Notes: generated by a model from the sequence alone, not told the origin. DNA of 64,000 nucleotides from an uncultured Pseudomonadales bacterium (GCA_964422035.1 CAYQZQ010000002.1:1612-65611), one strand, 5' to 3'; numbered from the stretch's first letter, positions 4,791-62,123 are shown. Numbers and translations: made by a program.

Positions 4791-4818
4791 ATAAGATTAT
4801 ATATTTGACATAATTAAG

Positions 4819-27096: not shown

Positions 27097-27125
27097 AAAA
27101 CCACTCCTTTGTGGAATGGTTTAGT

Positions 27126-31307: not shown

Positions 31308-32413
31308 AGATAGCTTTAGTTCATGACTATATTAAAGAGTTTGGGGGAGCAGAGAGGGTGTTGAGAGTTTTGGCGGATATGTATCCAGAAGCTCCAATAT
31401 ATACGGCTTTTTTAAAGAGAAACTCAGTGGCTTATGAAAAATTCAAAGATAAAGAAATAAATGAGAGTTTTCTGGGGCCTATTTTGAAGATATGGAAGTT
31501 ATATAGTCCTTTGAGGTTTTTATCTCCAATGATCTGGAGGAGCATGGACTTGTCTGATTATGATGTGGTGATAACATCAGCAAGCTGGTATATTACGCGA
31601 GGTTTTAAGACTAGTGAAAACACCAAGGTGATTTGTTATTGTCATACACCGCCAAGATATTTGTATGGGTATCAAACCAGTATTAATTGGCAAAAATATG
31701 GAGTAGTGCGATTGTATGCCAGTATTGTTAATTATTTTTTGAGGATTTTTGATTGGAATAGTGCTCAAGAAGTTGACCAGTGGGTAGTTAATTCTAAAAA
31801 TGTTAAGAAAAGAGTAAAAAAGTTTTATCGTCAAGACTCTCAAGTGATATATCCCCCTGTGGAAGTAAAAAGGTTTATCAAGGCAGCGGAAAAGGTAGAA
31901 AAAGAAAATTATTTTTTAATTGTGTCTAGATTAGTTGGAGGGAAAGGGTTGGAAGAAGCGGTTGAGGCGGCAACAGAGCTTGGTTTCAATTTAAAGATAG
32001 TTGGAAGTCAGGCTGGTTTTTCTAAAGTGGCGGAAAGTATCAAGAGACAGGCAGGAGAAAAGGTTGAGTTTTTAGGAAGAGTTGAGGATGATGAGCTAAC
32101 TGATCTGTATGCAAGAGCGAAGGGTTTTATTGCTTTGGCTAAGGAAGAGGATTTTGGAATAACACCGGTTGAGTCTATGGCGGCGGGTACGCCGGTAATT
32201 GCATATAAAGGGGGTGGTTTTAAGGAGACTGTTATTGATGATGAGACGGGAGTGTTTGTAACTGATACAAGTGTGGAAAGTTTGAAGGCAGCGGTTAGTA
32301 AGATAAATGGTAATGATTGGGACAAGAAAGCACTGCAAAAACAGGCTAAGAAATTTGGCAGAGAAAGATTTGAGAAAAAGGTAAGGGAAGAAGTAGGCAA
32401 GATGATGTCTTGA
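31304..32413 (+). CDS. Glycosyltransferase family 4
   Basis: 369 aa. C-terminal GT4 signature EDFGITPVESMAAGTPVIA. It overlaps the upstream gene by 4 nt. Confidence 0.75.
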   Translation: MKIALVHDYIKEFGGAERVLRVLADMYPEAPIYTAFLKRNSVAYEKFKDKEINESFLGPILKIWKLYSPLRFLSPMIWRSMDLSDYDVVITSASWYITRGFKTSENTKVICYCHTPPRYLYGYQTSINWQKYGVVRLYASIVNYFLRIFDWNSAQEVDQWVVNSKNVKKRVKKFYRQDSQVIYPPVEVKRFIKAAEKVEKENYFLIVSRLVGGKGLEEAVEAATELGFNLKIVGSQAGFSKVAESIKRQAGEKVEFLGRVEDDELTDLYARAKGFIALAKEEDFGITPVESMAAGTPVIAYKGGGFKETVIDDETGVFVTDTSVESLKAAVSKINGNDWDKKALQKQAKKFGRERFEKKVREEVGKMMS

Positions 32414-32426
32414 TATACTGTGGGGT

Positions 32427-33299
32427 ATGCCAGAGTTGCCCGAGGTAGAAACAATAGCTAGACAGTTGGATGAAAAATTGAGGGGGAAGAAAGTGGTTGA
32501 TATTGAGGTTTTAAGAGAAAGAAGCTTTAAGGGAAATGAGGATTTACTGGAGGGTAAGAAGATTGATGGTGTGAATAGGAGGGCAAAGTTATTGATAATT
32601 GAGTTTGAAGATTGGGACAGGGTGGTGTTGGTTCATTTGAAAATGACGGGGCAGTTTGTATGGAGGCCGAGTAATTGGGAGAAAGGGGAGTGGAGAGAGG
32701 AGTTAGCGGGCGGTCACCCAACTGATGATTGGTTAAATGAGCTACCAAGTTCTCATACTCGGGTAATGTGGAGTTTTGAGGATGATTCGAAGTTGTTTTT
32801 TAATGACATGCGTGTATTTGGATGGATGAAGATTGAGAAAGTTGAAGAATGGGAGAAGGAAAAGGAAAAAATGCCACCAGATGTAGTAGATAATGATTTT
32901 ACTTTGGAATATTTTAAGAGCTTTCTTTCTAGTACAAGGAGAATGGTGAAAACGGCAATTATGGATCAAAAAAAGATTGGAGGAGTAGGAAATATTTATG
33001 CTTGTGATGCTTTGTGGAAAGCTAAAATACATCCTGAGAGAAGGGCTAATAATTTGAGTGAGGAAGAGGTTGGGAGACTTTATGGCGCGATCGTGAGAGT
33101 GATAAATAAAGGTATTAAGATGGGTGGAGCTACTTATTCTGATTTTAAAGATACTCAGGGGTTGGGAGGAAGTTATCAAGATCATTTCTTGGTTTATGAT
33201 AGGGAAGGAGAGGAGTGTAAAAGGTGTAGAGAGAAAATTAAAAAGATAAAGGTAGGGGGGAGAGGAACATATTTTTGCCCTGTTTGTCAGTCTAAGTAG
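32427..33299 (+). CDS. mutM: Formamidopyrimidine-DNA glycosylase (Fpg/MutM; Fpg/Nei family)
   Basis: 290 aa. N-terminal MPELPEVE with catalytic Pro2/Glu3, an H2TH region, and a C-terminal zinc finger CKRC...CPVCQ. Confidence 0.85.
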   Translation: MPELPEVETIARQLDEKLRGKKVVDIEVLRERSFKGNEDLLEGKKIDGVNRRAKLLIIEFEDWDRVVLVHLKMTGQFVWRPSNWEKGEWREELAGGHPTDDWLNELPSSHTRVMWSFEDDSKLFFNDMRVFGWMKIEKVEEWEKEKEKMPPDVVDNDFTLEYFKSFLSSTRRMVKTAIMDQKKIGGVGNIYACDALWKAKIHPERRANNLSEEEVGRLYGAIVRVINKGIKMGGATYSDFKDTQGLGGSYQDHFLVYDREGEECKRCREKIKKIKVGGRGTYFCPVCQSK

Positions 33300-33320
33300 C
33301 ATTGAGGTATAATTTAAGTA

Positions 33321-34382
33321 GTGAAGTTGAAGAAATTTAGTCTGAAAGATTTTCGAAATTATGAAGAGAGAGATATTGAGTTGGGTGAGGGTGTGACGGT
33401 AGTTTTGGGTCCTAATGCAGTTGGAAAAACAAATATTTTAGAAGCCATTAGACTGGTGTCAACTGGAAACAGTTTTAGGGCAAGCAGAATTGAGGAGATG
33501 ATCAGGTTTGAACAGGAGTGGGGTAAGGTTGAGGTTTTTATGGATGATGAAGATGATGAGGAAGTTAAATTAACGGTAATGTTGACAAGAGGAGAGTTAA
33601 AGGGAAAAAGAGTTAACAAACGCAGATATATGATTAATGATAATGGGAAGAGAAAAAAGGATTTTGTAGGAAGAATGCCGTCAGTTGTGTTTCGTCCTCA
33701 AGATTTAGACATGATTGAAGGGTCCCCGTATTTGAGGCGAGGTTGGTTGGATGATATGTTAAGCCAAGCAGAAGTTGGATATGAGAGAAGTTTGAAGTCA
33801 TACAACAAGGCTTTGAGAAGAAGAAATAAAATTTTGGAGGCAATAAGGGAGGGAGAGGCTAGCAAATATCAATTGACTTTTTGGGATGGGTTGTTGATTA
33901 AGCATGGTCAAGAGCTTATAGAGAAAAGAGAAGAACTGGTGAGTTATGTTAATGAAATCTTTCGCAAAAGTGAGTTATTTTCACAGTTGAAGCTTGTTTA
34001 TGATAAAAATGTGGTTAGTGAAAGAAGACTGGATCAGTATGAGAAAGAGGAGGTGGCGGCAGGTCATACTTTGGTTGGTCCCCACAAAGATGATGTAATA
34101 GTTTTGTCTTTGGATGATAAAGAGAGGGATTTGGGTATTTATGGTTCGAGAGGTGAACAAAGAATGTCTGTTTTGGGGATGAAGATGGGTGAGCTTTTAT
34201 TTTTAGAAGAAAAATTAAAAAGAGTACCAATTTTATTGTTAGATGATATTTTTTCAGAACTTGATGAAGAGCATAGTGGTGAGGTGTATAAGGTGATGAA
34301 GGGTAGGCAAGCAGTAGTTACTACCACAGATGAAGAAAGAGTGGGTGATTTTGATGAAAAAAGAGTTGTAAAATTAAAGTAA
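33321..34382 (+). CDS. recF: DNA replication and repair protein RecF
   Basis: 353 aa. Walker A GPNAVGKTNILEAI, an SMC-like signature region, and Walker B LLLDDIFSELD. Confidence 0.85.
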   Translation: MKLKKFSLKDFRNYEERDIELGEGVTVVLGPNAVGKTNILEAIRLVSTGNSFRASRIEEMIRFEQEWGKVEVFMDDEDDEEVKLTVMLTRGELKGKRVNKRRYMINDNGKRKKDFVGRMPSVVFRPQDLDMIEGSPYLRRGWLDDMLSQAEVGYERSLKSYNKALRRRNKILEAIREGEASKYQLTFWDGLLIKHGQELIEKREELVSYVNEIFRKSELFSQLKLVYDKNVVSERRLDQYEKEEVAAGHTLVGPHKDDVIVLSLDDKERDLGIYGSRGEQRMSVLGMKMGELLFLEEKLKRVPILLLDDIFSELDEEHSGEVYKVMKGRQAVVTTTDEERVGDFDEKRVVKLK

Positions 34383-35254
34383 TGAGAGAAATTTTTGATA
34401 AAGAAAAAATTAAGGACTTGTGGGTTCCTGATAGTGAAAGGTCTAAATTTGATGCGGGTCAGGTAGTTATTATTGGAGGAAGTCGGTTATTTCATGGAGC
34501 ACCATTTTTGGCTTTAAAGGCAGCTTCACGAATTGTAGATATGGTTTATTTTTCTAGTTTTGAAGAAGATAAAGAAGTAGCTAATAATATTAAAACTGGA
34601 CTATCCTCATTTATCTGGGTTACTCGCGAGGAAGTTGGAGAGTATATAGAAAAATCAGACGCAGTTTTGATTGGTCCTGGATTGATGCGCTATGAAAAGG
34701 AGGATGGTCAAAAAGGAGACAGGATTGATGGGGAAGGACGCAAGACTCGTGAGCTTACAAGGAAACTGCTGGAGAGGTATAAAGAAAAGAGATGGGTGGT
34801 TGATGGAGGGAGTTTGCAAGTGATAGAACCAGAGCTTATACCTTCAGGAGCTGTGGTGACTCCTAATCAGAAAGAGTTTGAGATGCTATTTGGGGAAAAA
34901 GTAGATGTGAAGAATGAAGATGAGATGGTTTTAAAAGCTTCAAATCAGGCGAGTCGGCATGAGTGTGTGGTGGTGTTGAAGGGACCATCTTCTGTTGTAA
35001 CTAATGGAGAAAAGAGTTATTTGATAAGGGGTGGAAGTTCTGGATTGGCAAAAGGAGGTACGGGTGATGTTTTAGCAGGCTTGATTGTGGGACTGATGGC
35101 TAGGAATGAGAGTGTTTTGGCGGCTTGTGTTGCAAATTGGTTAATAAAAAGAGCAGGTGAGAGGTTGGAAGAAGAAAGAGGAGAGATGTTTAATGCAGAT
35201 GATGTGGCAGACATGGTGACTTTAGTATGGGGAAAAGTTATGAGCTCTTTTTAG
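34382..35254 (+). CDS. ADP-dependent NAD(P)H-hydrate dehydratase (YjeF C-terminal / Nnr family)
   Basis: 290 aa. GGSRLFHGAPFLALKAA and GGTGDVLAGLIVGLMA, the ribokinase-like YjeF-C signatures. Its start overlaps the recF stop. Confidence 0.75.
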   Translation: MREIFDKEKIKDLWVPDSERSKFDAGQVVIIGGSRLFHGAPFLALKAASRIVDMVYFSSFEEDKEVANNIKTGLSSFIWVTREEVGEYIEKSDAVLIGPGLMRYEKEDGQKGDRIDGEGRKTRELTRKLLERYKEKRWVVDGGSLQVIEPELIPSGAVVTPNQKEFEMLFGEKVDVKNEDEMVLKASNQASRHECVVVLKGPSSVVTNGEKSYLIRGGSSGLAKGGTGDVLAGLIVGLMARNESVLAACVANWLIKRAGERLEEERGEMFNADDVADMVTLVWGKVMSSF

Positions 35255-35531
35255 GGTTTTTTAGTCGGTTTTGAATCCTGGTGAGCTGCAGAGTAACTAG
35301 AATGGCTAGAGTGGTGACTATGATGGCGTAGATAAGTAGTGAAATGATGTTAGCACTTTGGGGAAGATAAGGAGTAACGTAGGTTTTGATAAATTCTTTG
35401 ACAACTTCGTTCCAAGCTAAGGCGGCTACTAATCCGAAGGCTGAGGTGGCAAGGGAAAGTATTTGTTCGATAATGGACACGGGCAGACTTTTGAAGTTTT
35501 CTGGGGCTTTAATTTTTTGAGCCATAAGCAT
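35238..35531 (-). CDS. Hypothetical small membrane protein (2 TM)
   Basis: 97-aa ORF with two hydrophobic helices. It is convergent with the nnr-like gene. No recognisable domain. Confidence 0.4.
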   Translation of the reverse strand: MLMAQKIKAPENFKSLPVSIIEQILSLATSAFGLVAALAWNEVVKEFIKTYVTPYLPQSANIISLLIYAIIVTTLAILVTLQLTRIQNRLKNPKKSS

Positions 35532-35584
35532 ATTTTATCAGTAGGCGGATTGATAATTCCTGCATAATTTGCAATAATTAGGGC

Positions 35585-36700
35585 ATGCTTGAGCCTGAGT
35601 ATCAAATAACGAATGAAATTTTGAAAAATATTGGTGTGATTGAGGCGGCAAAGGAGGTTATTAATAACGCTCCATTGGTGCCGGCTTGGGAAGCAAGATT
35701 TAAGGAAGAGGCAAGGGTAAAAACGGTACATTATGGCACACATGTTGAAGGTAATGATTTAACGTTTGAGCAGGCCCAGAAAATTGTTCAAGAAAAGTCA
35801 GAAAGAGATGAAAATGCTATGGAGGTGGCAAGGAGAGCCAGAGTGGTGGCTAGAGATAGAGATGTCCAAGAGGTAATAAATTATCGCAATGTGTTGGATT
35901 ACATTGATAGGAAAGTGAAAGAGTCTAGGGAGTTAGAAAAGGATGGGTTTGAATACACTAAAAGGCAAATGTTGGAGATGCATGCTCTAAGTGTGGAAAA
36001 GATTATGTCAGTTGATGAGGTGGGTGTTTTTCGTGATAAGCAAGTAGTTATTAGAGGAGTTAGAAAGGGCGATATTGTAAGGAGGCCGCCTAACGCAGTC
36101 GAGGTTCCTTATCAAGTTGAAGCATTTTTTAAATGGCTTAATAGTGAGGAAGCCAATAAGATACATCCGGTTTTAAGAGCAGGAATAGTTCATTATGAGT
36201 TATCCAGAATTCATCCATTTACAGAAGGTAATGGAAGGACGGCAAGAGGAATGGTTTTGCTTTTGTTGGCGATTGAGAACATTGATGCTAGAAGATTTTT
36301 TAGTATCGAAGAACATTTTGATAAGAATATAGTTGACTATTACGATGCTTTTATAAAAGTGGAAGAAGCGGGGGGAGAGATGACAGAGTGGTTGGAGTTT
36401 TTTAGTAAAGCTTTGGCAGTTGAGATGGAAAAGGTTAAAGAGAGAATAAAAAGAATTTCTATGGATAGTAGATTAAGAGGAAAGATGGGAAAACAAGTAG
36501 CTTTGAAAGAAAGGCAGATTAAGCTGATTGAGTATTTGGAGTCACATGAATGGTTGAGGATGAGTGAGGCAAGAAAAATCTTGCCGATGGTAAGTGATGA
36601 TACAATCTTGCGTGATATTAAGGATTTAATGGATAAGGATTTATTGAAGAAAAAGGGGAAGACTAAAGGTGCTCGTTATGCGTTAAAATCATTATCATGA
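35585..36700 (+). CDS. Fic/DOC-family protein (predicted AMPylase) with a C-terminal winged-helix domain
   Basis: 371 aa. Canonical Fic motif HPFTEGNGRTARGM (HPFx[DE]GNGRxxR). The C-terminal about 70 aa look like wHTH. Its stop overlaps the ligase start (ATGA). Confidence 0.85.
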   Translation: MLEPEYQITNEILKNIGVIEAAKEVINNAPLVPAWEARFKEEARVKTVHYGTHVEGNDLTFEQAQKIVQEKSERDENAMEVARRARVVARDRDVQEVINYRNVLDYIDRKVKESRELEKDGFEYTKRQMLEMHALSVEKIMSVDEVGVFRDKQVVIRGVRKGDIVRRPPNAVEVPYQVEAFFKWLNSEEANKIHPVLRAGIVHYELSRIHPFTEGNGRTARGMVLLLLAIENIDARRFFSIEEHFDKNIVDYYDAFIKVEEAGGEMTEWLEFFSKALAVEMEKVKERIKRISMDSRLRGKMGKQVALKERQIKLIEYLESHEWLRMSEARKILPMVSDDTILRDIKDLMDKDLLKKKGKTKGARYALKSLS

Positions 36701-38397
36701 AGATAGGAAAACTTGCAGAGAAATTACAGACGATAGAAAATACAGACTCGCGAAATGAGATGATCGTGCTTTTGGCTGATTTATTTGAAGAAGCTGATGT
36801 GGAAGAGGTGGATAAATTGGTCTATTTGAGTTTGGGTAGGTTAGGCTCTTTATTTGATAATCCGGAGTTTAATTTGGCTGAAAAACAAGTTCAAAAAGCA
36901 ATAACAAGAGCATATGAAAAAGATCTGAAGAGCGTAAATGAGCTGTATAAAGATATTGGGGATTTGGGGAAGGTAGCTGAAAAATTGGCATCAGACGATG
37001 AGGGTAATGGTTTTAGTGTTACGGAGGTGTGGGAGAGTTTAAAAAGAATAGCAGATGATAAGGGTGAGGGTAGTCAAGATAGGAAGATTCAAAATCTAGC
37101 TGACTTGTTAGATAAGATTGAGCCATTGGCGGCTAGATATGTGGTGAGAGTGGTAATTGGTAAATTGAGATTGGGGTTTTCTGATAAGACGGTTTTAGAT
37201 GCAGTTTCGTGGATGAAAAGAGGAGATAAAAGTGCCAAGGGTGAGTTAAAAAGAGCTTATCAAGTTCATCCTGATGTAGGTCGAGTTATTTATATGGCAA
37301 AGAAAGTCGGTATTGAAAAAACTGTGGAAGACACAAAGCTTGAGTTGGGAGTGCCGATAAGTCCGATGCTGTGCCAAAGATTGAAGACTACTAAAGAGAT
37401 GGTTGAGAAGATGGGTAAAGTGGCGGTGGAGCCTAAGTTTGATGGTCAAAGAGTTCAGATTCACTTTAAAAGAGATGGGAAAAAATGGAAAGCAAGAGCA
37501 TACACAAGAAACTTGGAGGAAATAAGCCATATGTTGCCTGAGTTGGACAGGTTGAGTGAGGAGGTAGAAGTGGATGAGTTAATTTTGGACAGTGAAGCGG
37601 TGGGATATGATCCTGAAACAGGTGAGATGTTGTCTTTTCAGAAAACTATGACGAGAAAAAGAAAACATGAAGTTCAAAGTCAGGCGGATAAGATTCCTTT
37701 AAAGTTTTATGTTTTTGATGTTTTATATATTGATGGAGAGAGCCTGGTTGACAAAGGTTATCAAGAAAGAAGGAAAAGGTTACAAGAGGTTGTTGGTAAA
37801 GGAGATTTGTTAATTGTTGATGAGCATTGGGAGACTGATGATGCAGATGCAATTAGAGAGCGTCATCATCAACTGGTCAATAGAGGACTGGAGGGAGTAA
37901 TTGTGAAAAAACTTGATAGTAAGTATGTGCCAGGCAGAACAGGCTGGAGATGGGTGAAGATGAAAGAAGATGAAGATTCTCACGCGAAGTTGATTGATAC
38001 TGTTGATTGTGTGGTGATGGGTTATTACAAGGGAAAGGGAAAAAGAGCGCAGTTTGGAGTGGGGGCCTTTTTGGCAGGGGTGAGAAAAGAGAAAGACATT
38101 GTAACTATTACAAAAGTGGGAACGGGATTGACGGATGATCAATTTAAGGATTTAAAAGATAGGCTTGATAAATTAGAGGTGAAAGATAAACCTAAAGAAT
38201 ACAAAGTTGATAAGAATATGGAGCCTGATGTCTGGGTTTCAGCTGATTTGATGGTTGAGCTTGCGGCTGATGAGGTGACAAAAAGTCCTATACATACTGC
38301 GGGCGTAGCACTTCGTTTTCCAAGACTGATTCGATTTAGGGATGATAAAAATGTTGATCAAGCAACTTCTTTGGAGGAAGTTGAGAGCATGAGTTAA
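36697..38397 (+). CDS. ATP-dependent DNA ligase
   Basis: 566 aa. Adenylation motif I VEPKFDGQRVQIH (KxDGxR), motif III/IV region (FYVFDVLYIDGE), motif V (EGVIVKK) and an OB-fold C-terminus. Confidence 0.85.
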   Translation: MKIGKLAEKLQTIENTDSRNEMIVLLADLFEEADVEEVDKLVYLSLGRLGSLFDNPEFNLAEKQVQKAITRAYEKDLKSVNELYKDIGDLGKVAEKLASDDEGNGFSVTEVWESLKRIADDKGEGSQDRKIQNLADLLDKIEPLAARYVVRVVIGKLRLGFSDKTVLDAVSWMKRGDKSAKGELKRAYQVHPDVGRVIYMAKKVGIEKTVEDTKLELGVPISPMLCQRLKTTKEMVEKMGKVAVEPKFDGQRVQIHFKRDGKKWKARAYTRNLEEISHMLPELDRLSEEVEVDELILDSEAVGYDPETGEMLSFQKTMTRKRKHEVQSQADKIPLKFYVFDVLYIDGESLVDKGYQERRKRLQEVVGKGDLLIVDEHWETDDADAIRERHHQLVNRGLEGVIVKKLDSKYVPGRTGWRWVKMKEDEDSHAKLIDTVDCVVMGYYKGKGKRAQFGVGAFLAGVRKEKDIVTITKVGTGLTDDQFKDLKDRLDKLEVKDKPKEYKVDKNMEPDVWVSADLMVELAADEVTKSPIHTAGVALRFPRLIRFRDDKNVDQATSLEEVESMS

Positions 38398-52042: not shown

Positions 52043-52094
52043 TAAGAAAAGGTCCGCCTGATGATTGTGTTATCAATTTAATAAGAATTTGCCT

Positions 52095-52982
52095 ATGAGA
52101 AAGTCCTTTTTCATATTTTTATTGGTTATTTTACCTTTTTTTAGTTTAGGCACGATTTGGGCTCAAGAGCCGGATGATGCTAATTTATCTACTGAAGTAG
52201 CAACTGAGGCAGGATCTGCAAGCTCTTCAGCGGTGGTAATTATAGAGGAAAAAGAGAACTTAACTGAGCCTAAGCAGTCAAAAAGCAGGCTGGAAAGAGT
52301 GTTGGAGTCAAAGGATGTGGGAGAGTTGAGTGTAACTAATTTTTTACAGGTTGCGATAAGAAGAGCTGTTAGCCAGGGTGTGCCTGCAAATACGATTGTT
52401 TTGATGCTTTTGTTTCCTTTGGTGGCTGCGATTATTGCTGCGGCCAGGCATATTGTGGGGTTGAAAGGTTTTGGTATTTTTACTCCGGCTGTTATCTCGG
52501 TAGCGTTTCTGTCTACTGGTGTGGGTGTGGGTGTGTTGTTGTTTTTGGGGATTATTGTGGTAGCTACTTTAGGGCGAATGATTATTCGTAAGATGAGGCT
52601 GCCTTCTTTGCCCAGGCTGGCTTTGCTTTTGTGGTTTGTGTCATTGGGAGTGTTGGGGTTGATACTGGCTTCGCCCTGGTTGAATTTGAATAGCTTGATA
52701 ACCATCAGCATTTTCCCTATTTTGCTTTTGGTGCTGTTGGCTGAGACGTTTATCAGAGTTCAGATCACTAGAAGTTTCAGAGAAGCAATGAGGCAGACAT
52801 TCCAGACGTTTGTGTTGGCCTTGTTATCGTTTTTGGTGATGAGTACGCAAGCTTTGCAGGAATGGGTGCTTTTAAACCCGGAAATTTCGGTAATTATGAT
52901 TGCGGTGTTAAATATCATGATTGCCAAGTACGGTGGGCTAAGACTTTTGGAGATGTGGCGTTTTAGAAAGATAATTAAGTAA
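52095..52982 (+). CDS. Secreted N-domain + 7TM membrane protein, candidate 7TM module of an ATP-grasp amidoligase system (7TM_transglut-like)
   Basis: Signal peptide MRKSFFIFLLVILPFFSLGTIWAQE, an extracytoplasmic region of about 80 aa, then seven hydrophobic helices. Its stop is 4 nt before the ATP-grasp gene start. Start was placed at the signal-peptide Met inside ORF 52065..52982. Confidence 0.55.
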   Translation: MRKSFFIFLLVILPFFSLGTIWAQEPDDANLSTEVATEAGSASSSAVVIIEEKENLTEPKQSKSRLERVLESKDVGELSVTNFLQVAIRRAVSQGVPANTIVLMLLFPLVAAIIAAARHIVGLKGFGIFTPAVISVAFLSTGVGVGVLLFLGIIVVATLGRMIIRKMRLPSLPRLALLLWFVSLGVLGLILASPWLNLNSLITISIFPILLLVLLAETFIRVQITRSFREAMRQTFQTFVLALLSFLVMSTQALQEWVLLNPEISVIMIAVLNIMIAKYGGLRLLEMWRFRKIIK

Positions 52983-52986
52983 GGCA

Positions 52987-54321
52987 ATGGCCAAGTTAAG
53001 TGATATTCTAGGAATCAATGCGAGAAGTAAACATTATCTGAGACTGAATTACAAGCAGTCTCGGAGAATGGCGGATAGTAAGTTAAAATCCAAACTGTTT
53101 TTGGAAAAACATGACATTCCAGTTCCTGAGACGTATGCTTTGTTTGAGGATAGGGAAGAGGTTGATGAGTTTGACTGGTTAAGTCTAAATGGCGCTTTTG
53201 TAATAAAGCCGGTAAATGGACTAGGTGGTGAAGGAATTTTAGTGGTTAAGAAAAAAGCTAAATATGCAGGTGAGTGGTATTTGATGGATGGGAATAAGAT
53301 TAATTTTGAAGATTTGAAGTTGCACGCCAATGATGTTTTACAGGGAAGGTATAGTAAGAACAATTTACCTGATAAGGCTCTGGTTGAGAGAAGAATTAAG
53401 ATTCACCCAAAGTTTGGGAAAATTGCTAAAGGGGGTACTCCTGATATTAGGACGATTGTCTATAACAAAGTGCCTGTTATGGCAATGTTGAGGATACCAA
53501 CGGAGGAGAGTAAGGGAAAAAGTAACTTGCATCAGGGGGCTATTGGTTTAGGGGTGGATATGGCAACTGGAATTACTACCTATGGAGTGTGGCATGATAA
53601 TTTAATTAAGTATTTTCCGGGTACAAAAAAGAAGGTGAATGGTATTGTGGTTCCGCACTGGACGAAGATATTGGAGATAAGTAGTAAGATTCAACACGAA
53701 AGGCCTTGCCTGGGATATTTTGGAGCAGATATCTTGATTGATAAAGATGAGGGACCTCAGGTGATTGAGTTGAATGACCAACCAGGCTTGTCTATTCAGA
53801 TTTGTAATAAGGCAGGACTAAGAAGAAGGTTGGAGAGAGTAGAAGGATTGTATGTCGAGACGGTTGAGAAAGGAGTTAAAGTTACTAAAACTTTGTTTGC
53901 TAGTGGATTTGCCAGGAAAGTTAAGAGTGTGGGTGAAAGACCTACTATTGGAATTTTTGAGACGGCTAGAATTAAGCCAGGAGGGAAAAGAAAGAAGCGA
54001 GTGGATGTGTCGGTTAAAATTGATACCGGTGCGTATAGCAGTAGTATTGATAGGGAGTTGGCTAAGAGATTTAAGTTACTGAAGGATGAAAATGTATTAT
54101 ATGAGAAAACTTTTAAATCTTCGTTGGGCAGGGAGGAGAGAAAAGTAATAATGGTGGATTTGAAATTACGAGGGAAAAGAGTGAGAGCTAGAGCAAGTGT
54201 TACAGATCGATCTGGTTTGAGAAGGAAGATGATTTTAGGCAGAAGAGATTTAAGAGATTTTCTTGTTGATCCAGCACAGTTTAAGCCTCGAGATAGGTAT
54301 GGGGAGAAGATTGAAAAATAA
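52987..54321 (+). CDS. Fusion of an alpha-L-glutamate-ligase-related (RimK-like, 'sugar-transfer-associated') ATP-grasp domain and a C-terminal retropepsin-like DTGA aspartic-protease-like domain
   Basis: 444 aa. N-terminal ILGINARSKHYLRLNYKQSRRMADSKLKSKLFLEKHDIPVPETY, FVIKPVNGLGGEGILVV, DIRTIVYNKVPVMAMLRIPTEESKGKSNLHQGAIGLGVDMATGIT and ELNDQPGLSIQ are ATP-grasp blocks of the RimK-related family. The C-terminal 140 aa carry KIDTGAYSSSID (D-T-G-A), as in the RimK-associated putative-protease family. Confidence 0.7.
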   Translation: MAKLSDILGINARSKHYLRLNYKQSRRMADSKLKSKLFLEKHDIPVPETYALFEDREEVDEFDWLSLNGAFVIKPVNGLGGEGILVVKKKAKYAGEWYLMDGNKINFEDLKLHANDVLQGRYSKNNLPDKALVERRIKIHPKFGKIAKGGTPDIRTIVYNKVPVMAMLRIPTEESKGKSNLHQGAIGLGVDMATGITTYGVWHDNLIKYFPGTKKKVNGIVVPHWTKILEISSKIQHERPCLGYFGADILIDKDEGPQVIELNDQPGLSIQICNKAGLRRRLERVEGLYVETVEKGVKVTKTLFASGFARKVKSVGERPTIGIFETARIKPGGKRKKRVDVSVKIDTGAYSSSIDRELAKRFKLLKDENVLYEKTFKSSLGREERKVIMVDLKLRGKRVRARASVTDRSGLRRKMILGRRDLRDFLVDPAQFKPRDRYGEKIEK

Positions 54322-54328
54322 GATGTAG

Positions 54329-55213
54329 TTACTGGTTGTGTCTTTTTTCAAAGTGTTTGATGATGCTTAGAGCAATGTTGTGTTGGGTGTATTTTTCTAA
54401 GCCAGTGAACTGGGGACCTCTGTTTACTTCTAATACGTAAGGCTTGTTTGTTTGCTGGTGAAGCATAATGTCTATGCCGGCTATTTCGGTGTGAAGAAGT
54501 CGAGAGGTTTTTTCAGCGAGTTGCTTTATTTTGGGGTTGTCCTGTAGGGGGAAAGGTTTGGCGGTGCCTCCTTGGGAGATATTGGATTTAAAACTGTCAT
54601 TGGGTGGGATACGGTGCATGACACCTATGGCTTGATAGCCGACGGTGAAGACTCTAATGTCTCCGTTGTTGGGAATAAACTCTCTGAACATAAATGATTT
54701 TGATTTTTTGTTTTGGTTTATGATGTTGATTGCCTGCTCTTTGCTTTCTACTTTATATACTCCCTGCCCTCTTTGGCCGCCGGTTTTGATAATTAGAGGA
54801 AATCTGTGGTTTTTTAGAGCAGCATCTGCTTGATCTGGTGAAAGAATGGTTGTGGTATAGGGAAAGTTAATATCGTTTTGTTTTTGTTTTAAGAGTTCGT
54901 GGATAGGGGTAAAAAATAGGTTGTAGCTGGGGTCAATATATTTTTGTTCTATGATGGTTGTGTGGTGTGTTTGGTGAAGGTAATGGCAGGTAAGATACCA
55001 AGGCCATTTTCTTTTTCCTACAGCGAGCAGGTAGATAAGATCAAAGTTTTTTAGAGATTTATTGCTAATGGTGGGGTGAAATTTTTTATTGGATGAGTGA
55101 ATGATTAGATCTTTTGAGCTACAGTTTATAAGTTGATGATTGCGTTTTTCCCCTTCTTGTTTGAGGCGATTGAAGTTGCTACTAGTTGTTTTGCCGACAA
55201 CTAAAATTTTCAT
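54329..55213 (-). CDS. RimK/LysX-like ATP-grasp ligase, second ATP-grasp enzyme of the locus, convergent
   Basis: 295 aa from MKILVVGK. FPLIIKTGGQRGQGVYKV (ATP-binding loop), FMFREFIPNNGDIRVFTVGYQAIGVMHRIPPNDSFKSNISQGGT and GIDIMLHQQTNKPYVLEVNRGPQF (Mg/ATP-grasp C-terminal motif). The upstream in-frame extension to 55369 was rejected because it overlaps mnmA. Confidence 0.7.
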   Translation of the reverse strand: MKILVVGKTTSSNFNRLKQEGEKRNHQLINCSSKDLIIHSSNKKFHPTISNKSLKNFDLIYLLAVGKRKWPWYLTCHYLHQTHHTTIIEQKYIDPSYNLFFTPIHELLKQKQNDINFPYTTTILSPDQADAALKNHRFPLIIKTGGQRGQGVYKVESKEQAINIINQNKKSKSFMFREFIPNNGDIRVFTVGYQAIGVMHRIPPNDSFKSNISQGGTAKPFPLQDNPKIKQLAEKTSRLLHTEIAGIDIMLHQQTNKPYVLEVNRGPQFTGLEKYTQHNIALSIIKHFEKRHNQ

Positions 55214-55293
55214 TGAATTTATTATACAGTGATAACAATGATATTTTGTCAGACAGGGATGTTTTTGGGATCGTCTGTGATAAAATATGGCCT

Positions 55294-56376
55294 GTGAATC
55301 AGACAAAAGATAAACGACTAGAAGTTGCAGTAGGCCTGTCTGGAGGTGTTGATAGTGCTGTGAGTGCATATCTTTTAAAGCAACAAGGATATGAAGTGGT
55401 TGGTGTGTATTTGAAGTGTTGGGATGAGGGTCCTGAGTGTCAAGCGAGGCAGGACAGGAAAGATGCTCTCAGGGTGGCTATGAAGCTTGAGATTCCAGTT
55501 AAGGTGTTGGATTTTGAGAAGGAATATAGAGAAAGAGTAATTGATAGGTTTTATGAGGCTTACAAGAAAGGTTTTACTCCAAATCCTGATGTGTGGTGCA
55601 ACAGTGAGATAAAGTTTGGTTTGTTTTTAGATTGGGCAAAAAGTGAGGGTTTTGACAAGATTGGAACAGGCCATTATGCAAAAAAGGGAGAGACAGATGG
55701 GGGTTATAAATTGTTAAGACCAAAAGACAAAAGTAAAGATCAAACGTATTTTTTATATCAACTTAATCAAGAACAATTGAAGAGTGCGTTGTTTCCTTTG
55801 GGAGAGAAAGAGAAAAGTTGGGTAAGAGAAAAGGCTGGAGAAATTGATTTGCCGGTAGCTGACAAAAAAGACAGTCAGGGAATTTGTTTTGTGGGAGATG
55901 TGGATGTGCAAGAGTTTTTAAGAAGAAGATTAGAAGAAGAGAAGGGTGAGGTGGTTAATAGTAAAGGAGAAAGGATTGGTGTTCATCAAGGAGTCTGGTT
56001 TTATACTATCGGGCAGAGAGGTGGTTGGCAGATAGATAGGGAGTTTCAGCAAAATTATCAAGGAGAGATGCCAGTGTTTTATGTTGTAGACAAAGATATT
56101 GAGAGTAATAAGTTAATAGTGGGGGAGAGAGAAGAGTTGGGTACAACAAACTTTAAGGTAAGTGATTTGAGTTGGATAAGAGAGTTGAATGATGAGTTGT
56201 CTGATGACGATTTAAAGGTAAGAATACGTAATTTAGGAGAGTTGGTGGATTGTAGTGTGAGTGTGGCAGATGAATTGGCTGTTGAGGTTGAAGATGAACT
56301 AGAGGGAGTTGCGTGTGGGCAAGCGGCAGTCTTTTATTTGAACGATGAGTGCTTGGGTGGAGGGGTGATTAAATAA
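55294..56376 (+). CDS. mnmA: tRNA-specific 2-thiouridylase MnmA
   Basis: PP-loop VAVGLSGGVDSAVSAYLL, catalytic Cys in NPDVWCNSEIKF and SQGICFVGD. Start was assigned to the in-frame GTG at 55294; ORF 55186 has no in-frame ATG near the conserved N-terminus. Confidence 0.8.
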   Translation: MNQTKDKRLEVAVGLSGGVDSAVSAYLLKQQGYEVVGVYLKCWDEGPECQARQDRKDALRVAMKLEIPVKVLDFEKEYRERVIDRFYEAYKKGFTPNPDVWCNSEIKFGLFLDWAKSEGFDKIGTGHYAKKGETDGGYKLLRPKDKSKDQTYFLYQLNQEQLKSALFPLGEKEKSWVREKAGEIDLPVADKKDSQGICFVGDVDVQEFLRRRLEEEKGEVVNSKGERIGVHQGVWFYTIGQRGGWQIDREFQQNYQGEMPVFYVVDKDIESNKLIVGEREELGTTNFKVSDLSWIRELNDELSDDDLKVRIRNLGELVDCSVSVADELAVEVEDELEGVACGQAAVFYLNDECLGGGVIK

Positions 56377-57608: not shown

Positions 57609-58931
57609 TTAGAAAAGTTCGGAGGAAAGTTTTTTAAGAGTTGAGAAGTCTTGGTGGTGGAAAAGCTGTTTGTAGCCTAAAGTTTTGGCTTCTTTGAGTC
57701 TTTTGTCAAAATAGGGGACTGGTCTGATTTCTCCAAGCAAACCTAGTTCTCCGATACTAAGTGAATTTAATGGTAGGGGTTTGTCTTTGTAGCTACTTAA
57801 GATTGCTAGAGCGATAGCTAGATCAGCAGCAGGATCGGAAAGGTTAAGTCCGCCAGTGACGTTTACGAAGACATCTCTTTGTCCCAGTTTAAGATTTAGA
57901 TGTTTGGTTAGAACAGCGCAGATGAGCTGTAGTTTGGATTTTGAAATTCCTTGCCCAACACGTCGAGGGATGTTTAGTTCGGTGTAGACGGTTAGGGCTT
58001 GGATTTCGACCAGTAGGGGTCTAGTACCCTCCATGATAAGGCTTAGGGCTGATCCTGGATTCTTCTGACTAGAGTCTGAGAGGAAGGCTTGACCGGGGTT
58101 TTGTATTTCTTTTAGGCCTTTGGAGCTCATTTTAAAAAGACCGGTTTCGTCTGTTGGTCCAAAGCGGTTTTTAAGGCCTCGAAGAAGTCTTAAATCATGA
58201 TGGCGGTTGCCTTCAAGCTCTAGGACAACGTCAACCATGTGTTCTAGAAGTTTTGGTCCTGCAATGGTGCCTGATTTTGTAACATGGCCAACTAAGATAA
58301 TGGGAAGTTGGGTTGATTTGGCTAGATTGATTAGTTTTTTGGCGCTGGTGCGAATTTGGGATGGTGTGCCGGGGGATGAGGACAAGCCAGGATTGGTAAG
58401 AGATTGGATGGAATCGACGATTAAAAGATCTATATCGTGGTGATTTTTTTGAACGTGCTTGATTATGTCAGGAGTGGAGCTGGTTTCTAGTAATTTGATT
58501 GAGTCAGAGTCTGATTTAGGGGAAAGTCGTTTGATGCGTTTTGATACTTGGTAGTTATTTTCTTCAGAGCAGATATATAAAGTGCTTTCTTTAGGTGATA
58601 ACTTGATTGAGAGTTGGGATAGAAGGGTAGATTTGCCGATACCTGGTTGCCCAGCAAGAAGAATGACGGATCCGGCGGTTAAGCCACCACCTAGTACACG
58701 ATCCAGTTCTTTGATTTGGGTGGATTGCTGATCAAAGTCGCTTTTTTCTAGTGTTTGTTTGGGGGTGGTGGCTTTGGGAGCTTTAGTTGGGGAGAAGTCT
58801 TGAGGATCAGAGGTGTCTATTTGAAGAGGTCTGATGGTATTCCAGTTTTTACAGATGGGACATTGGCCTGACCACTTGGGAAATTCATTGCCGCAGTCAT
58901 CACAGATATAGATGGTATCTTTGTTGGACAT
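57609..58931 (-). CDS. radA: DNA repair protein RadA/Sms
   Basis: 440 aa. N-terminal zinc finger CDDCG...CPICKNWN, Walker A GQPGIGKSTLLSQL, the RadA KNRFGP motif, and a Lon-protease-like C-terminal domain. Confidence 0.9.
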   Translation of the reverse strand: MSNKDTIYICDDCGNEFPKWSGQCPICKNWNTIRPLQIDTSDPQDFSPTKAPKATTPKQTLEKSDFDQQSTQIKELDRVLGGGLTAGSVILLAGQPGIGKSTLLSQLSIKLSPKESTLYICSEENNYQVSKRIKRLSPKSDSDSIKLLETSSTPDIIKHVQKNHHDIDLLIVDSIQSLTNPGLSSSPGTPSQIRTSAKKLINLAKSTQLPIILVGHVTKSGTIAGPKLLEHMVDVVLELEGNRHHDLRLLRGLKNRFGPTDETGLFKMSSKGLKEIQNPGQAFLSDSSQKNPGSALSLIMEGTRPLLVEIQALTVYTELNIPRRVGQGISKSKLQLICAVLTKHLNLKLGQRDVFVNVTGGLNLSDPAADLAIALAILSSYKDKPLPLNSLSIGELGLLGEIRPVPYFDKRLKEAKTLGYKQLFHHQDFSTLKKLSSELF

Positions 58932-59097
58932 ATTTTTAGTATACAGTGTTTATTAGTGGGGGAGAAAGGGTGTTTTAAAGTTATCCACAGGAAATATTTT
59001 TTGTGAATTTGAGTTAGAAAAGATTGGTGTAGGGGGATAACAGATACTATTGATAATTATAGGATTATGGTGAAATAAGTGAAGTTAATATTACAGG

Positions 59098-59125
59098 TTG
59101 ATTTTTTAGGAAAGATTGCTATAAT
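59098..59125 (+). promoter_or_regulatory. Sigma70-like promoter: -35 TTGATT (59098-59103), 16-nt spacer, extended -10 TGCTATAAT (59117-59125)
   Basis: Perfect TATAAT with an upstream TGn, good spacing and an AT-rich upstream tract. It sits in a 470-bp gap between two minus-strand genes and has no plus-strand ORF downstream. Confidence 0.45.
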
Positions 59126-59132
59126 TTGGATA

Positions 59133-59378
59133 CATAGGTGAAACCTTCAGAAAGCACATAAAAAAGTCAAGACAAATAGAAAAGCATCACTACCGCAGGC
59201 GATGCTCGAATAGTGATGCCTTTCTGTGATTGACTGCTCCAGGACAGGTGGCAGCAGTCTGATGAAACTGTAGCAGATGAATATTTATTTTGTCAACTTA
59301 TAGTTTCATGGCCCTGAAAGGGGTTTGGTGACTAGTTGGGCAGGCAAGTCACCAACCCGCTTTTGGGGCTTTTTTTAT
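59133..59378 (+). ncRNA. Candidate small non-coding RNA (about 245 nt), family unassigned
   Basis: It runs from the predicted TSS (about 7 nt after the -10) to a stem-loop plus U7 terminator. Internal hairpins include GCAUCACUA...UAGUGAUGC (9 bp) and GACUGCU...AGCAGUC (7 bp). No ORF of 60 aa or more lies in the region. Confidence 0.4.
59322..59377 (+). terminator. Putative Rho-independent terminator (12-bp bulged stem, GGUGACU/AGUCACC core, followed by CCC..GGGG C + U7)
   Basis: Stem 59322-59334 pairs with 59348-59359. U-tract at 59371-59377. Oriented for plus-strand transcription. Confidence 0.4.
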
Positions 59379-59399
59379 GGTTTGACTTGAAATTTGAGA

Positions 59400-62123
59400 C
59401 TACTTTTTTTGTTTGGGTTGATGAAAAATGAGAAGGATAGGAAGTATAATGAGGGCAGCGAAACCAAGATATTGGATTAATTGGGGTTGATAGATGATAA
59501 GTAGATTTGATTGACCGGAGGGAAGTAGCCAGCTATTGGCCCAGTTGTTTGCTTGTTGGTGAGTAGGAAGAGGTTGGAGCATGGTTGATAGAGCGTATTG
59601 TTTCCAGACAGGAAGTAAAGTGGTTTTTGAGGGAATTAGATAGGCTTTCCAGCCCTTATCAAAGCTTTGATTTAGGGTGATTAGAGAACGGGGGTGAGGT
59701 GAGTTTGCAGAGATAGTGTAGAGGGTTGGAGAGTGTTTCTTAACGGAGGTGATGTCTGTGTATGGATAAGAAGATGGTTGAGTAGCGATGTCAAATTGAG
59801 AGGCGGGAAGAGGAGTGATCTGGATTTTTTTCCAGGAGTTTTTAGTTTCTGTTTGGCCTATGGAGTAGTTGTAGAGATGGAGGGTGTAGCCGTATTTTTC
59901 AGGTTGCATTGGGGGAAGAGTTATGGTGTCTTTGTGCCAGTCGGCTGATTTGTCCAGATATTGATATATAAGGCAGTTTTTTGATGTGTATGACTCAAGA
60001 CAGAGCGAGAAGGGAAAGCCGGAGTGATTGCGATGCTCAATATTGATTTGATAGCCGTATGAATGAGGTAGTGAGGAGAAGTTGAAGTGGTCGCAGGTGT
60101 TAGCATCGGTGGCGGTGTAAGTAACTTGATCTGAAAGGATTTGTTTATCAAAATATTGAGAGTTGAACTGATCGCAGTTTTTAGATTGGTCTTCTATGGC
60201 GGAGTTGTTGTCTTGAGGGGTTTGAGTGATGATTTGTGGAGCCGGTTGGGGTGAATCAGGTAGAAGGTTGTTGGTTGAAGACAGTTTTTGGGTGTTGATG
60301 AAGCTTTTGGGCTGGGTGGGAAGAGAAAGTGAGTAGAGGGTAAGATGATCAAAGGTTTTTTGATTGGTTACAAGTGAGCTTTGAGAAAGCAGGGACTTTA
60401 GTTGGTCAGTATAGAGGGCAGTTTGATCTTGGGAGGCGGGGATAGTAACTGAGTGATCGATTAGAAGCCAGTTAATTTGGTATTTTTCAAGTAGATGTTC
60501 TAGATAGGGGAGGTTTTGTGAATAAAGAGCAGTTCTGATTTCTTGGTAGTAGTCTTGATTGTAGGGAGACCAGACATCAAAAGCTCTGTCTAGGGTAGCT
60601 TGGGGTATGCCGTACCAGATAAAACCTGATCCTCTATACCCCCACTGGTAGAAGTGCCACCCCCAGAGGGTATGTTGAGGAAAGTTGGCTAGTCTGGTGT
60701 TGTGATCTTGATTGTCTAGGTATTCAAATAACTGAAAGTAGCTTTGGGGTATGGAGGTCTTTAAAGGAGAGTAGATTAGGTGGCCCTGAAAGGCGGGAGA
60801 AGAGAGTAATATTAAGGCTAAAGCTAGTGTGAATGAGGTAAGTAGGGGGGTTAGTTTGAAGTGAAGCATGGAGAAGAGGTCAAGTAGAAAGACGGTGGCA
60901 ACAGAGAAGAAAAGAGAGAAGCTTAGGGCAGCAGGTGTACCCCATTTGGTAAAAGGTGAGCGAAAGGCTTGATTAAGTAAGGGTAGGTGTTGTTGGAAAG
61001 ACTGATAAAGCGAGAGGAAGGGTGGGTTTAGATTGATAAGGAAAAATATGGATATAAGGGATAAAATTACAAGTGGTATAGCGGTGTAGAGTTTTTTTAT
61101 CAGAGAGTAAATTAAGCCAATAAGAGTGAGGGCAAAGATGGTGTAGCCGATGAAGTCGATAACAGGGTGGGACAGGTGTTCTATCCAAGGTTGCATAATG
61201 AGTTGAAACTTATTTTCTGAGAGATTAAGGTCGGTGTATTGAAAGTTGAAGCTTTTGAGTAGGGCCAGGTTTGAGATTTGACCAAACTCTTGATTTCGGG
61301 CAGTTATCTCTGGTGTTGAGATTTGATTTTGTAAGGCTGTGGGAAGTTGGTTGGCTGAAGAGAGAGTAAAGTGTGAGTTAGGGAGGAGCCAGTAAGCTTG
61401 AGTGATAATTATGGTTAAGGTGAGTATGAAGAGTTGTTTTAGAGTGGAAAAAGAAAGGTTGGTGACAAGATGATGGATGAGAAAAGGAATAAGAGAGATG
61501 ATAAAGACTATGAATAATGTTTGAACATAGAAAGTGGGGGTGGAGGCTATAAGTATAAGAGTTAAAAAGATAAAGGTTTTTTTAGAAGGCTGGTTAAGAT
61601 ATTTGATTGAGGAGTAAAGAAGCCAAGGAAGAAAGGCATAGAAATAGGTAAAGGTCTCAAAAGGAAGATAGAAAACTTGAACAGTGTTTAGGTTAAGCAG
61701 ATAGGCAAGGGCAGCAAAGAAAGCAGCAATTTTTTTGGCTTGAGGGTCGAGTTTGTCTAGAATGGTTTTTGAGGCAAGAAAATAAACACCTAAGGGGCCT
61801 AGGGTTAGAGTAATAAAGGTAAGTAGGTAGCGGATGAAATTAAGAGGGAAAATTAAAGATAATAGGTATGCAGTGAGGGTTCTTGTTAAATCTGCAGAGT
61901 GAGCCATGCCGGCTAGTAAGCCAAGACCTCGATATTGCTGCCAGATGGATAAGTATCGCTTGAAGTGAAGGGGGAAGTTAAATTCTGAGTGAATGTTGTC
62001 CCAGCCGGTTAGCCAAGTATTTGGTTGGTAGTTGAGAAAAGAAAGGGAAGAGGTGATGAAGATAATAGCAATTATCGGCCAGTAAGGTAAAGCTTTACTG
62101 AAGATCGATTTTAGTTGTTTCAT
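59400..62123 (-). CDS. Large polytopic membrane protein with a C-terminal extracytoplasmic domain, GT-C-fold-like (YfhO/ArnT-like) candidate glycosyltransferase
   Basis: 907 aa. About 13 TM helices in the first 450 aa, then a soluble Cys-containing domain of about 450 aa. It lies immediately downstream of a GT2 gene, as in csbB-yfhO-type pairs. Confidence 0.4.
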   Translation of the reverse strand: MKQLKSIFSKALPYWPIIAIIFITSSLSFLNYQPNTWLTGWDNIHSEFNFPLHFKRYLSIWQQYRGLGLLAGMAHSADLTRTLTAYLLSLIFPLNFIRYLLTFITLTLGPLGVYFLASKTILDKLDPQAKKIAAFFAALAYLLNLNTVQVFYLPFETFTYFYAFLPWLLYSSIKYLNQPSKKTFIFLTLILIASTPTFYVQTLFIVFIISLIPFLIHHLVTNLSFSTLKQLFILTLTIIITQAYWLLPNSHFTLSSANQLPTALQNQISTPEITARNQEFGQISNLALLKSFNFQYTDLNLSENKFQLIMQPWIEHLSHPVIDFIGYTIFALTLIGLIYSLIKKLYTAIPLVILSLISIFFLINLNPPFLSLYQSFQQHLPLLNQAFRSPFTKWGTPAALSFSLFFSVATVFLLDLFSMLHFKLTPLLTSFTLALALILLSSPAFQGHLIYSPLKTSIPQSYFQLFEYLDNQDHNTRLANFPQHTLWGWHFYQWGYRGSGFIWYGIPQATLDRAFDVWSPYNQDYYQEIRTALYSQNLPYLEHLLEKYQINWLLIDHSVTIPASQDQTALYTDQLKSLLSQSSLVTNQKTFDHLTLYSLSLPTQPKSFINTQKLSSTNNLLPDSPQPAPQIITQTPQDNNSAIEDQSKNCDQFNSQYFDKQILSDQVTYTATDANTCDHFNFSSLPHSYGYQINIEHRNHSGFPFSLCLESYTSKNCLIYQYLDKSADWHKDTITLPPMQPEKYGYTLHLYNYSIGQTETKNSWKKIQITPLPASQFDIATQPSSYPYTDITSVKKHSPTLYTISANSPHPRSLITLNQSFDKGWKAYLIPSKTTLLPVWKQYALSTMLQPLPTHQQANNWANSWLLPSGQSNLLIIYQPQLIQYLGFAALIILPILLIFHQPKQKK

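Follow-up and report, generated by a model that had tools for sequence, protein, structure and literature searches.

What occupies the gap downstream of a large membrane-protein gene and upstream of radA in a 64,000-nucleotide stretch of DNA labelled as that of an uncultured Pseudomonadales bacterium (CAYQZQ010000002.1:1612-65611; the whole stretch is hereafter called the window)? A preliminary description had noticed in this gap (58932-59399; 468 bp) a plus-strand promoter, a terminator further on and several helices, and had proposed an RNA of unknown family between them. Comparison with related loci now indicates with high confidence that the gap holds a genuine new structured non-coding RNA (ncRNA) gene on the plus strand. 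The gene spans 59098-59376 and is predicted to yield an RNA of ~200-245 nucleotides (nt) with its own promoter and intrinsic terminator; its conserved functional core of ~200 nt runs from hairpin H1 to hairpin H4 (59180-59376). The decisive evidence is comparative: the predicted promoter, helices, loops and U tract are kept in 20 loci, with covariation.

Both genes flanking the gap had been named correctly, as Pfam confirms radA and the 907-residue open reading frame (ORF) on its other side carries the hydrophobic segments of a membrane protein (Table 1). The gap is also as free of ORFs as had been described: none of 60 amino acids (aa) or more falls within the RNA interval, and the longest plus-strand ORF that touches it has 31 aa. 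The window RadA is at most 63% identical to any other protein in a collection of 5.8 billion, and because its named relatives are Patescibacteria, Woesebacteria and Collierbacteria, the window is of Microgenomates-type origin within the candidate phyla radiation (CPR). A scan of GTDB genomes with RadA peptides returned only distant phyla, at ~40% identity.

Homologues and covariation

The promoter reported earlier is present at 59098-59125, matches 10 of 12 consensus positions and carries the additional TG of an extended -10 element. In a single sequence such a match is not significant, six promoter-like sites being found in 2.5 kb against 4.0 ± 2.1 expected, so that comparative evidence is needed. 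This evidence comes from 20 distinct loci with the RNA in Microgenomates/Patescibacteria, including relatives of Woesebacteria and Collierbacteria. Among loci anchored on RadA (52-63% identity), nhmmer and covariance model R1 place the RNA next to radA in 10 of the 11 with available flank; none was found beside radA in L019, and L024, whose contig ends 57 nt from radA, lies outside this count. A metagenome scan with the pattern TAGCA-N11-19-TGTCAA-N32-62-GTTGGGCAGGC gave 25 hits. Thirteen were true members, three of which duplicated another hit or L018, leaving 10 new loci, and the other 12 were GC-rich chance matches without GGACAG. The scan under-sampled the family because UAGCA is not invariant, as seen in the Woesebacteria- and Collierbacteria-type loci. 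Across loci, model R1 scores range from 111 to 204 bits. A blastn search of a phage collection gave no match, and a pattern scan of IMG/VR yielded one GC-rich chance match that was rejected by the covariance model.

The RNA interval of the window (59132-59378) folds with a minimum free energy (MFE) of -92.6 kcal/mol, compared with -63.3 ± 4.8 kcal/mol for shuffled sequences (z = -6.1; 0 of 200 shuffles as good); the minus strand of the same region gives z = -5.3. Pairing was scored on a model-based alignment (A6; 18 sequences, 43 modelled pairs). In this alignment 93.4% of cells are paired, compared with 34-48% in controls whose 3' partners were displaced by 1-3 columns, values that are generous because the alignment was fitted to the model and its sequences are related. 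Compensatory changes on both sides are seen in 26 of the 43 pairs, and 0 of 500 column shuffles reached any observed measure. Independent single-sequence folds show H4 in 18 of 18 members and H2 in most. The type of mismatch distinguishes the strands: G-U cells outnumber A-C cells by 67 to 28, so that 93.4% of cells pair if the RNA is read from this strand and 88.3% if it is read from the opposite one, and both promoter and U tract point to the same strand. The locus thus shows what is generic for structured ncRNAs, namely a compensated conserved fold and a promoter and terminator kept among homologues.

That the motifs arose by chance in an AT-rich spacer, or mark a small-protein gene, can be given a negligible probability. 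The count of promoter-like hexamer pairs, no rarer than chance, is what speaks for it, whereas the retention of motifs with compensatory changes in 20 homologous loci, together with the z-score of -6.1, refutes an origin by chance. A protein-coding role is equally poorly served, as there is no conserved reading frame, ORFs do not exceed 31 aa, and substitutions are paired and without codon periodicity, with the invariant bases located in loops.

Architecture of the core

The core consists of three separate hairpins, H1, H2 and H4, with a possible pseudoknot. The 9-bp stem GCAUCACUA/UAGUGAUGC that had already been noticed is real and forms the centre of H1, in which 10 of 17 modelled pairs show compensatory changes and 92% of cells are paired. 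The apex of H1 varies among relatives and has a 20-nt insertion in one member; the alternative pairing with a closer GAUGC that had been suggested for the 5' arm of this stem exists in the window only and is not supported. A 5S-rRNA-like GCCGAACUC in the apex is a coincidence, given that the apex varies, and a kissing contact between GCCUAAC of the H1 apex and GUUGGGC of the H4 loop was rejected as a universal feature, the two being complementary in about half of the members.

H2 shows compensatory changes in all six of its modelled pairs and folds independently, with 9-13 bp, in most of the 18 sequences; its GGACAG motif is invariant and always lies in or at the loop. Two short motifs follow. 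The first, UAGCA, is replaced by UAACA in the Woesebacteria-type locus and is shifted in the Collierbacteria-type locus. Pairing of the second, UUGUCAA, with the H2 loop gives a plausible candidate pseudoknot: all 18 sequences keep four of its pairs unchanged, while at the fifth position 10 have G-C, five have G-U and three have no pair. RNAalifold proposed the interaction independently. A variable spacer of 10-60 nt separates UUGUCAA from H4.

H4 is a helix of 22-28 bp in all members, and 10 of its 12 modelled inner pairs show compensatory changes (96% of cells paired). The plus-oriented terminator of the preliminary description corresponds to this bulged hairpin (59311-59369) and the T7 tract behind it (59370-59376); its 12-bp stem is real, but represents only the inner part of a helix of ~25 bp. 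A simple terminator scan missed H4 because its apical loop is longer than 8 nt. The 11-nt loop GUUGGGCAGGC is invariant except in L058, where it reads GUCGGGCAGGC, a U to C change that converts a predicted U-G pair into C-G. Closing of the loop by G-C, U-G and U-G would leave GGGCA, which would fit the GNR(N)A pentaloop pattern. Such pentaloops are docking or peptide-binding modules. Targets complementary to the H4 loop were found at chance level in the 64-kb window.

Other features of the window fold are not shared by relatives. These comprise an MFE helix at 59262-59309, an A8/U7 closing helix and a hammerhead-like CUGAUGA...GAAA, all three of which were rejected. The 5' leader is equally variable: that of the window has 45 nt, close relatives have 60-90 nt and the overall range is ~0-95 nt, with essentially no leader where radA and the RNA are in tandem. 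Conservation is lowest in this 5' region, which makes a seed-pairing small RNA (sRNA) unlikely.

Promoter module and upstream DnaA box

The -35 hexamer is fused to a TAYAGG element. TAYAGG(N)TTG stands upstream of the RNA, or of a small ORF followed by the RNA, in 20 of 20 loci; it has a single perfect match in the whole 64-kb window, and the TAYAGG element was not found at tRNA promoters. The full arrangement TAYAGG-TTGAnn-(16-18)-TGnTATAnT is recognisable in most loci. Most loci contain a second motif, of the type TATAGG, TATGGG or TACGGG, 25-40 nt upstream of the promoter-proximal TAYAGG.

Further upstream, 100-111 nt from TAYAGG, 13 of 20 loci have a DnaA box (TTATCCACA or TTTTCCACA, at most one mismatch, RNA strand), and in two further loci a copy is shifted or has two mismatches. 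The box is found at this distance in the tandem loci too, there on the downstream side of radA, and is for this reason assigned to the RNA unit and not to the radA promoter. The DnaA-box consensus is near-universal, and its presence at 58981-58989 suggests that DnaA would bind there; control of the RNA promoter by DnaA is a tentative proposal, which we consider possible but rather less than probable. An additional reverse box-like site occurs 14-49 nt upstream in seven loci, compared with about one expected by chance. L044 has three DnaA boxes within 80 nt.

These boxes raise the question of whether the RNA belongs to a replication origin. In plasmid ColE1, RNA II is the replication primer and RNA I an antisense regulator, and the RNA described here could loosely resemble them as a DnaA-box-linked primer or regulator of a unidirectional origin. 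The likeness lies in a highly structured RNA with a strong promoter, a DnaA box nearby and a replicon for which replication in one direction has been proposed (PMC7143001). The spacing between box and promoter is constant, and some loci have additional box-like sites. Every 2-kb bin of the window has a GC skew between +0.28 and +0.57, independent of gene strand; related loci are likewise one-sided, the RNA being always on the G-rich strand. This agrees with what has been published for UBA1400 Microgenomates, namely a one-strand G/C disparity across the whole genome; their replication was proposed to be unidirectional, from an origin that is still unlocated (PMC7143001). No skew flip was found at the locus, and because the lineage shows one-strand disparity (PMC7143001) this is uninformative and not evidence against an origin. 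Neither dnaA nor dnaN was found in the 64-kb window. However, a primer of the ColE1 type continues into the origin unterminated and forms a lasting RNA-DNA hybrid, whereas an intrinsic terminator with its U tract closes the RNA described here, and such a primer was rejected. The coding sequence of the convergent gene begins within 25 nt (24 nt beyond H4 and U7), which leaves no room for a downstream origin. Moreover, there is usually only one strong DnaA box; neither a DnaA-trio nor an AT-rich unwinding element is evident, an antisense partner gene is lacking and no sequence relationship to the ColE1 RNAs is detectable. The family also occurs in low-skew genomes (L046, L025), and a stable folded RNA accounts better than a primer for the invariant loops and covarying helices. 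The chance that the RNA serves an origin in this way is accordingly slim.

Genomic context

radA is the only constant neighbour of the RNA, in divergent or tandem orientation, and rpsA is also conserved near the locus. In most loci the RNA and radA occupy opposite strands; in the rest the RNA follows the 3' end of radA, so that it never lies in the radA 5' untranslated region (UTR). A MOSC gene separates the two in L022 and L023. In the Woesebacteria-type locus L054, a gene of the 23S_rRNA_IVP family (bAvd-like; 4604-4972) lies between the RNA unit and radA.

On the downstream side, window-type loci have a convergent ORF of 900-1245 aa with no Pfam match, consistent with the earlier statement that the RNA of the window serves no downstream gene. 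ORFs of 899-1245 aa that resemble the 907-aa ORF in size and position are syntenic in L018, L025, L027, L051, L056 and L058; in the window this ORF comes after GT2 glycosyltransferase genes. In tandem loci the same-strand downstream genes are unrelated, encoding Rho in L046 and a different protein in L052 despite a near-identical RNA, and other same-strand downstream genes encode proteins without Pfam matches. In three loci, ORFs of 75-80 aa with a ...GWELV... motif begin 8-25 nt downstream of the RNA; they are presumably DUF4177-like, and Pfam gave no match for the one checked.

In five loci (L027, L029, L050, L054 and L056) a conserved basic ORF of 44-47 aa is placed downstream of the TAYAGG promoter and ahead of H1. 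It ends in ...KMGxxGQQLVVMSR* and shows the third-codon-position variation typical of coding sequence; it matches no Pfam or NCBIfam family and has only three database homologues, being annotated as hypothetical in Collierbacteria. The ORF is absent from the window and most members, where the RNA persists without it. Because the 5' end varies and in this subgroup carries an ORF, the functional unit is the H1-H4 core, maybe processed from longer transcripts, and the basic protein could be a protein partner of the RNA. The joining of an ORF and a structured RNA in one predicted transcript recalls SR1/SR1P and RNAIII/hld, which are dual-function or ORF-linked sRNAs. Here, however, the ORF precedes the structured core instead of being part of it, and the window and most members lack it.

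This context bears directly on whether the RNA acts in cis, as a riboswitch or leader of a downstream gene, as a 3'-UTR element of the small ORF or in the control of radA. Such an element would be in keeping with a complex fold that has a candidate pseudoknot, invariant bases in junctions and loops, and a 3' hairpin resembling a terminator; in addition, radA is always adjacent, the small ORF precedes the RNA in five loci, and tandem loci have a gene beginning 10-65 nt behind H4. A riboswitch or leader for a defined gene is nevertheless excluded, because downstream genes are convergent (in the window and at least six relatives, with nothing downstream to regulate) or unrelated between loci, even between near-identical RNAs. 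The loop of the H4 'terminator' is invariant, unlike that of an expression platform; the RNA outlasts the small ORF where the latter is absent, and it is never placed to act as a leader of radA. We thus regard a role purely in cis as improbable.

Elsewhere in the window, a run of repair genes on the plus strand (30339-38397) encodes a 5'-3' exonuclease, Fpg, a RecF-like SMC_N ATPase and an ATP-dependent DNA ligase, and also contains a Fic-domain gene; the RecF-like gene has no adjoining dnaA or dnaN. A RimK-like/ATP-grasp cluster (52065-55369) adjoins a 7TM transglutaminase-like gene, an arrangement kept in L018. ARAGORN calls tRNA-Ile with anticodon UAU, which is uncommon in bacteria, at 25263-25335 (plus strand) and tRNA-Met at 27125-27200 (minus strand), the latter not being listed by the Rfam gathering scan.

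Table 1. Features of the RNA locus in the window, and sets of related loci
Feature	Position	Strand	Remarks
radA	57609-58931	minus	Pfam: Zn-ribbon, RecA-like ATPase and ChlI/Lon-like domains
DnaA-box consensus TTATCCACA	58981-58989	plus	one of only two perfect copies in the window
Upstream TAYRGG copy (TATAGG)	59058-59063	plus	second TATAGG/TATGGG/TACGGG-type motif in most loci
TACAGG element fused to -35 TTGATT	59092-59103	plus	TAYAGG(N)TTG in 20/20 loci
-35 hexamer TTGATT	59098-59103	plus	16-nt spacer to -10 element
Extended -10, TGcTATAAT	59117-59125	plus	TGnTATAnT kept at 16-18 nt spacing in most relatives
Variable 5' leader	59132-59179	plus	probable start near 59132; sequence and length not conserved
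H1	59180-59223	plus	13-bp stem, invariant ACCG-Y-AG...CU-CGAAU internal loop/helix, variable apex
H2	59232-59259	plus	9-13 bp stem; window loop A-GGACAG-GU (59241-59249), family loop N-GGACAG-NNN
UAGCA	59271-59275	plus	single-stranded; invariant in 16 aligned members
UUGUCAA	59290-59296	plus	59290-59294 can pair with GACAG 59243-59247 of H2 loop (candidate pseudoknot)
H4	59311-59369	plus	~25-bp bulged hairpin, apical loop GUUGGGCAGGC (59335-59345)
U7 tract	59370-59376	plus	predicted intrinsic terminator tail; U tract after H4 in most relatives
907-aa ORF	59400-62123	minus	multi-pass membrane; at least 8 hydrophobic segments, no Pfam match
44-47 aa ORF	L029 935-1072 (+); L054 4294-4431 (-); L056 4516-4653 (-); L027 3732-3863 (-); L050 2429-2569 (-)		
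GWELV-motif ORFs	L054 3796-4026 (-); L056 3991-4218 (-); L022 ~1157-1400 (-)		
RadA-anchored loci with RNA			window, L018, L021, L022, L023, L025, L027, L054 (Woesebacteria-type), L056 (Collierbacteria-type), L058
radA divergent (5' to 5') to RNA			window, L018, L021, L025, L027, L050, L051, L054, L056, L058
Tandem, radA upstream on RNA strand			L036, L038, L046, L049
Next gene convergent			window, L018, L025, L027, L051, L056, L058
Loci with DnaA box (13)			window, L018, L021, L025, L034, L036, L039, L044, L046, L049, L050, L051, L058

Comparison with known RNA families

The 4227 covariance models of Rfam 15 gave no match at the gathering threshold in the window region. At E <= 10, the scan of eight members (the window and seven others) returned only miRNA and snoRNA hairpin noise that differed between members, so that the original judgement of an RNA of unknown family stands: no family was found at any boundary. 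ARAGORN reported three tRNAs only and no transfer-messenger RNA (tmRNA) in the window, and Rfam found no tmRNA either. The hallmarks of tmRNA, RNase P RNA, signal recognition particle (SRP) RNA and 6S RNA, which had not been recognised by eye, are therefore missing by these searches as well.

A highly diverged housekeeping RNA of one of these four kinds, unrecognised by Rfam in CPR bacteria, was considered in view of the class-level conservation, the strong promoter and a size of ~200 nt typical of 6S RNA; the 64-kb window holds no canonical copy of any of the four. 6S RNA has a closing stem, a large central bubble and a terminal stem-loop. The RNA described here resembles 6S RNA (ssrS) in length, promoter strength, wide conservation within a lineage and a putative protein-binding mode in trans, and a 6S-like RNA had been one suggestion. 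This suggestion does not hold: the three separate hairpins form neither a rod nor a central bubble, no 6S model matches, and in L046-type loci the promoter abuts H1, which makes a 5'-3' closing stem impossible.

In SRP RNA, helix 8 carries a GNRA tetraloop together with symmetric and asymmetric loops that are conserved. The tetranucleotides CAGG and AGCA recall the symmetric loop of helix 8, but this reading was rejected: the stem of H2 covaries, so that GGACAG belongs to a hairpin loop and cannot form a strand of helix 8. No SRP model matched at E <= 10. Bacterial RNase P RNA has a P4 core with CR-I, CR-IV and CR-V and at least 300 nt, and tmRNA combines a tRNA-like domain with a tag reading frame. 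A core of ~200 nt is far too short for either, lacks the core motifs of both and matches no model, including the minimal RNase P types. With none of the families found at E <= 10 among the eight members, a hidden housekeeping RNA is highly improbable.

The nearest analogues in kind, without homology, are orphan ncRNAs of complex fold such as the raiA motif and OLE RNAs, both of which are represented in Rfam. Like these, the RNA is a stand-alone gene of at least ~200 nt with promoter and intrinsic terminator; several of its helices covary, one candidate pseudoknot is present and many of the unpaired bases are invariant. It is confined to one lineage, has no regulated downstream gene and its function is not deducible from sequence. 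It differs from them in showing no sequence or structure match, in the arrangement of three hairpins with a 25-bp terminal rod, in its Microgenomates/CPR host, in the constant position beside radA and in the module of DnaA box and TAYAGG promoter. A literature search on CPR ncRNAs, on 6S or SRP RNA in CPR and on radA-linked RNAs turned up nothing relevant.

Discussion

On balance, we favour an independent, trans-acting structured RNA of an undescribed Microgenomates family, with a dedicated promoter and loops read by a partner. The RNA would be transcribed from an extended -10 promoter with TAYAGG, probably DnaA-sensitive through the box ~100 nt further upstream, and transcription would end at the intrinsic terminator, whose H4 hairpin would be a functional domain as well. 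The mature core would be made up of H1, H2 and the long rod of H4, with UGUC probably pairing with the H2 loop as a pseudoknot. The folded RNA is proposed to act in trans, because the downstream gene is convergent in window-type loci and unrelated elsewhere, and through recognition by a partner rather than a seed, because the 5' leader is variable and the invariant bases lie in loops. Its invariant unpaired surfaces (the ACCG/CGAAU internal loop, GGACAG, UGUCAA and the GUUGGGCAGGC loop) would be recognised by a putative conserved partner, most likely a protein, making it part of a ribonucleoprotein or a regulatory RNA, and neither a base-pairing sRNA nor a riboswitch. For this trans, partner-binding mode taken by itself, the case is evenly balanced.

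Several observations weigh against this account. The aligned sequences are related, so the shuffle controls overstate their independence, and the pseudoknot and loop motifs are invariant, so covariation speaks neither for nor against their roles. Transcription of the RNA gene, with its ends, is predicted from sequence. In one subgroup the RNA is the 3' part of a predicted transcript that also encodes the 44-47 aa basic protein, and the tandem loci have a gene that begins ~10-65 nt beyond H4; some cis role may exist in these two groups. Finally, the adjacency of radA may be functional or may reflect only strong local synteny.

The succession of DnaA box, ~100-nt spacer, TAYAGG promoter and RNA, always beside radA, a recombination gene, can also be read as a DnaA-controlled RNA that feeds back on replication or repair, an idea we consider unlikely. 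In its extreme form, the RNA locus may be part of the unlocated origin of unidirectionally replicating UBA1400-type chromosomes.

CPR bacteria, or Patescibacteria, account for much of bacterial diversity; their genomes are tiny, almost none of them has been cultured, and no lineage-specific ncRNA for them turned up in Rfam 15 or in the literature. New RNA families are found regularly, and one that is class-wide and linked to a DnaA box in CPR bacteria is unusual. What is new here is the RNA family and possibly its biology; the stand-alone structured sRNA gene is a familiar category. The RNA very likely does something important in reduced Microgenomates genomes, because it is kept class-wide there with an invariant 11-nt loop, a dedicated promoter, a DnaA box and radA adjacency. 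It offers a new class for structural and biochemical study and a marker gene for Microgenomates, and its DnaA box provides a testable handle on replication control in bacteria whose one-strand G/C disparity is unexplained. If DnaA feedback proved true, the CPR would have in this RNA its first lineage-specific housekeeping RNA, one with a link to replication control.

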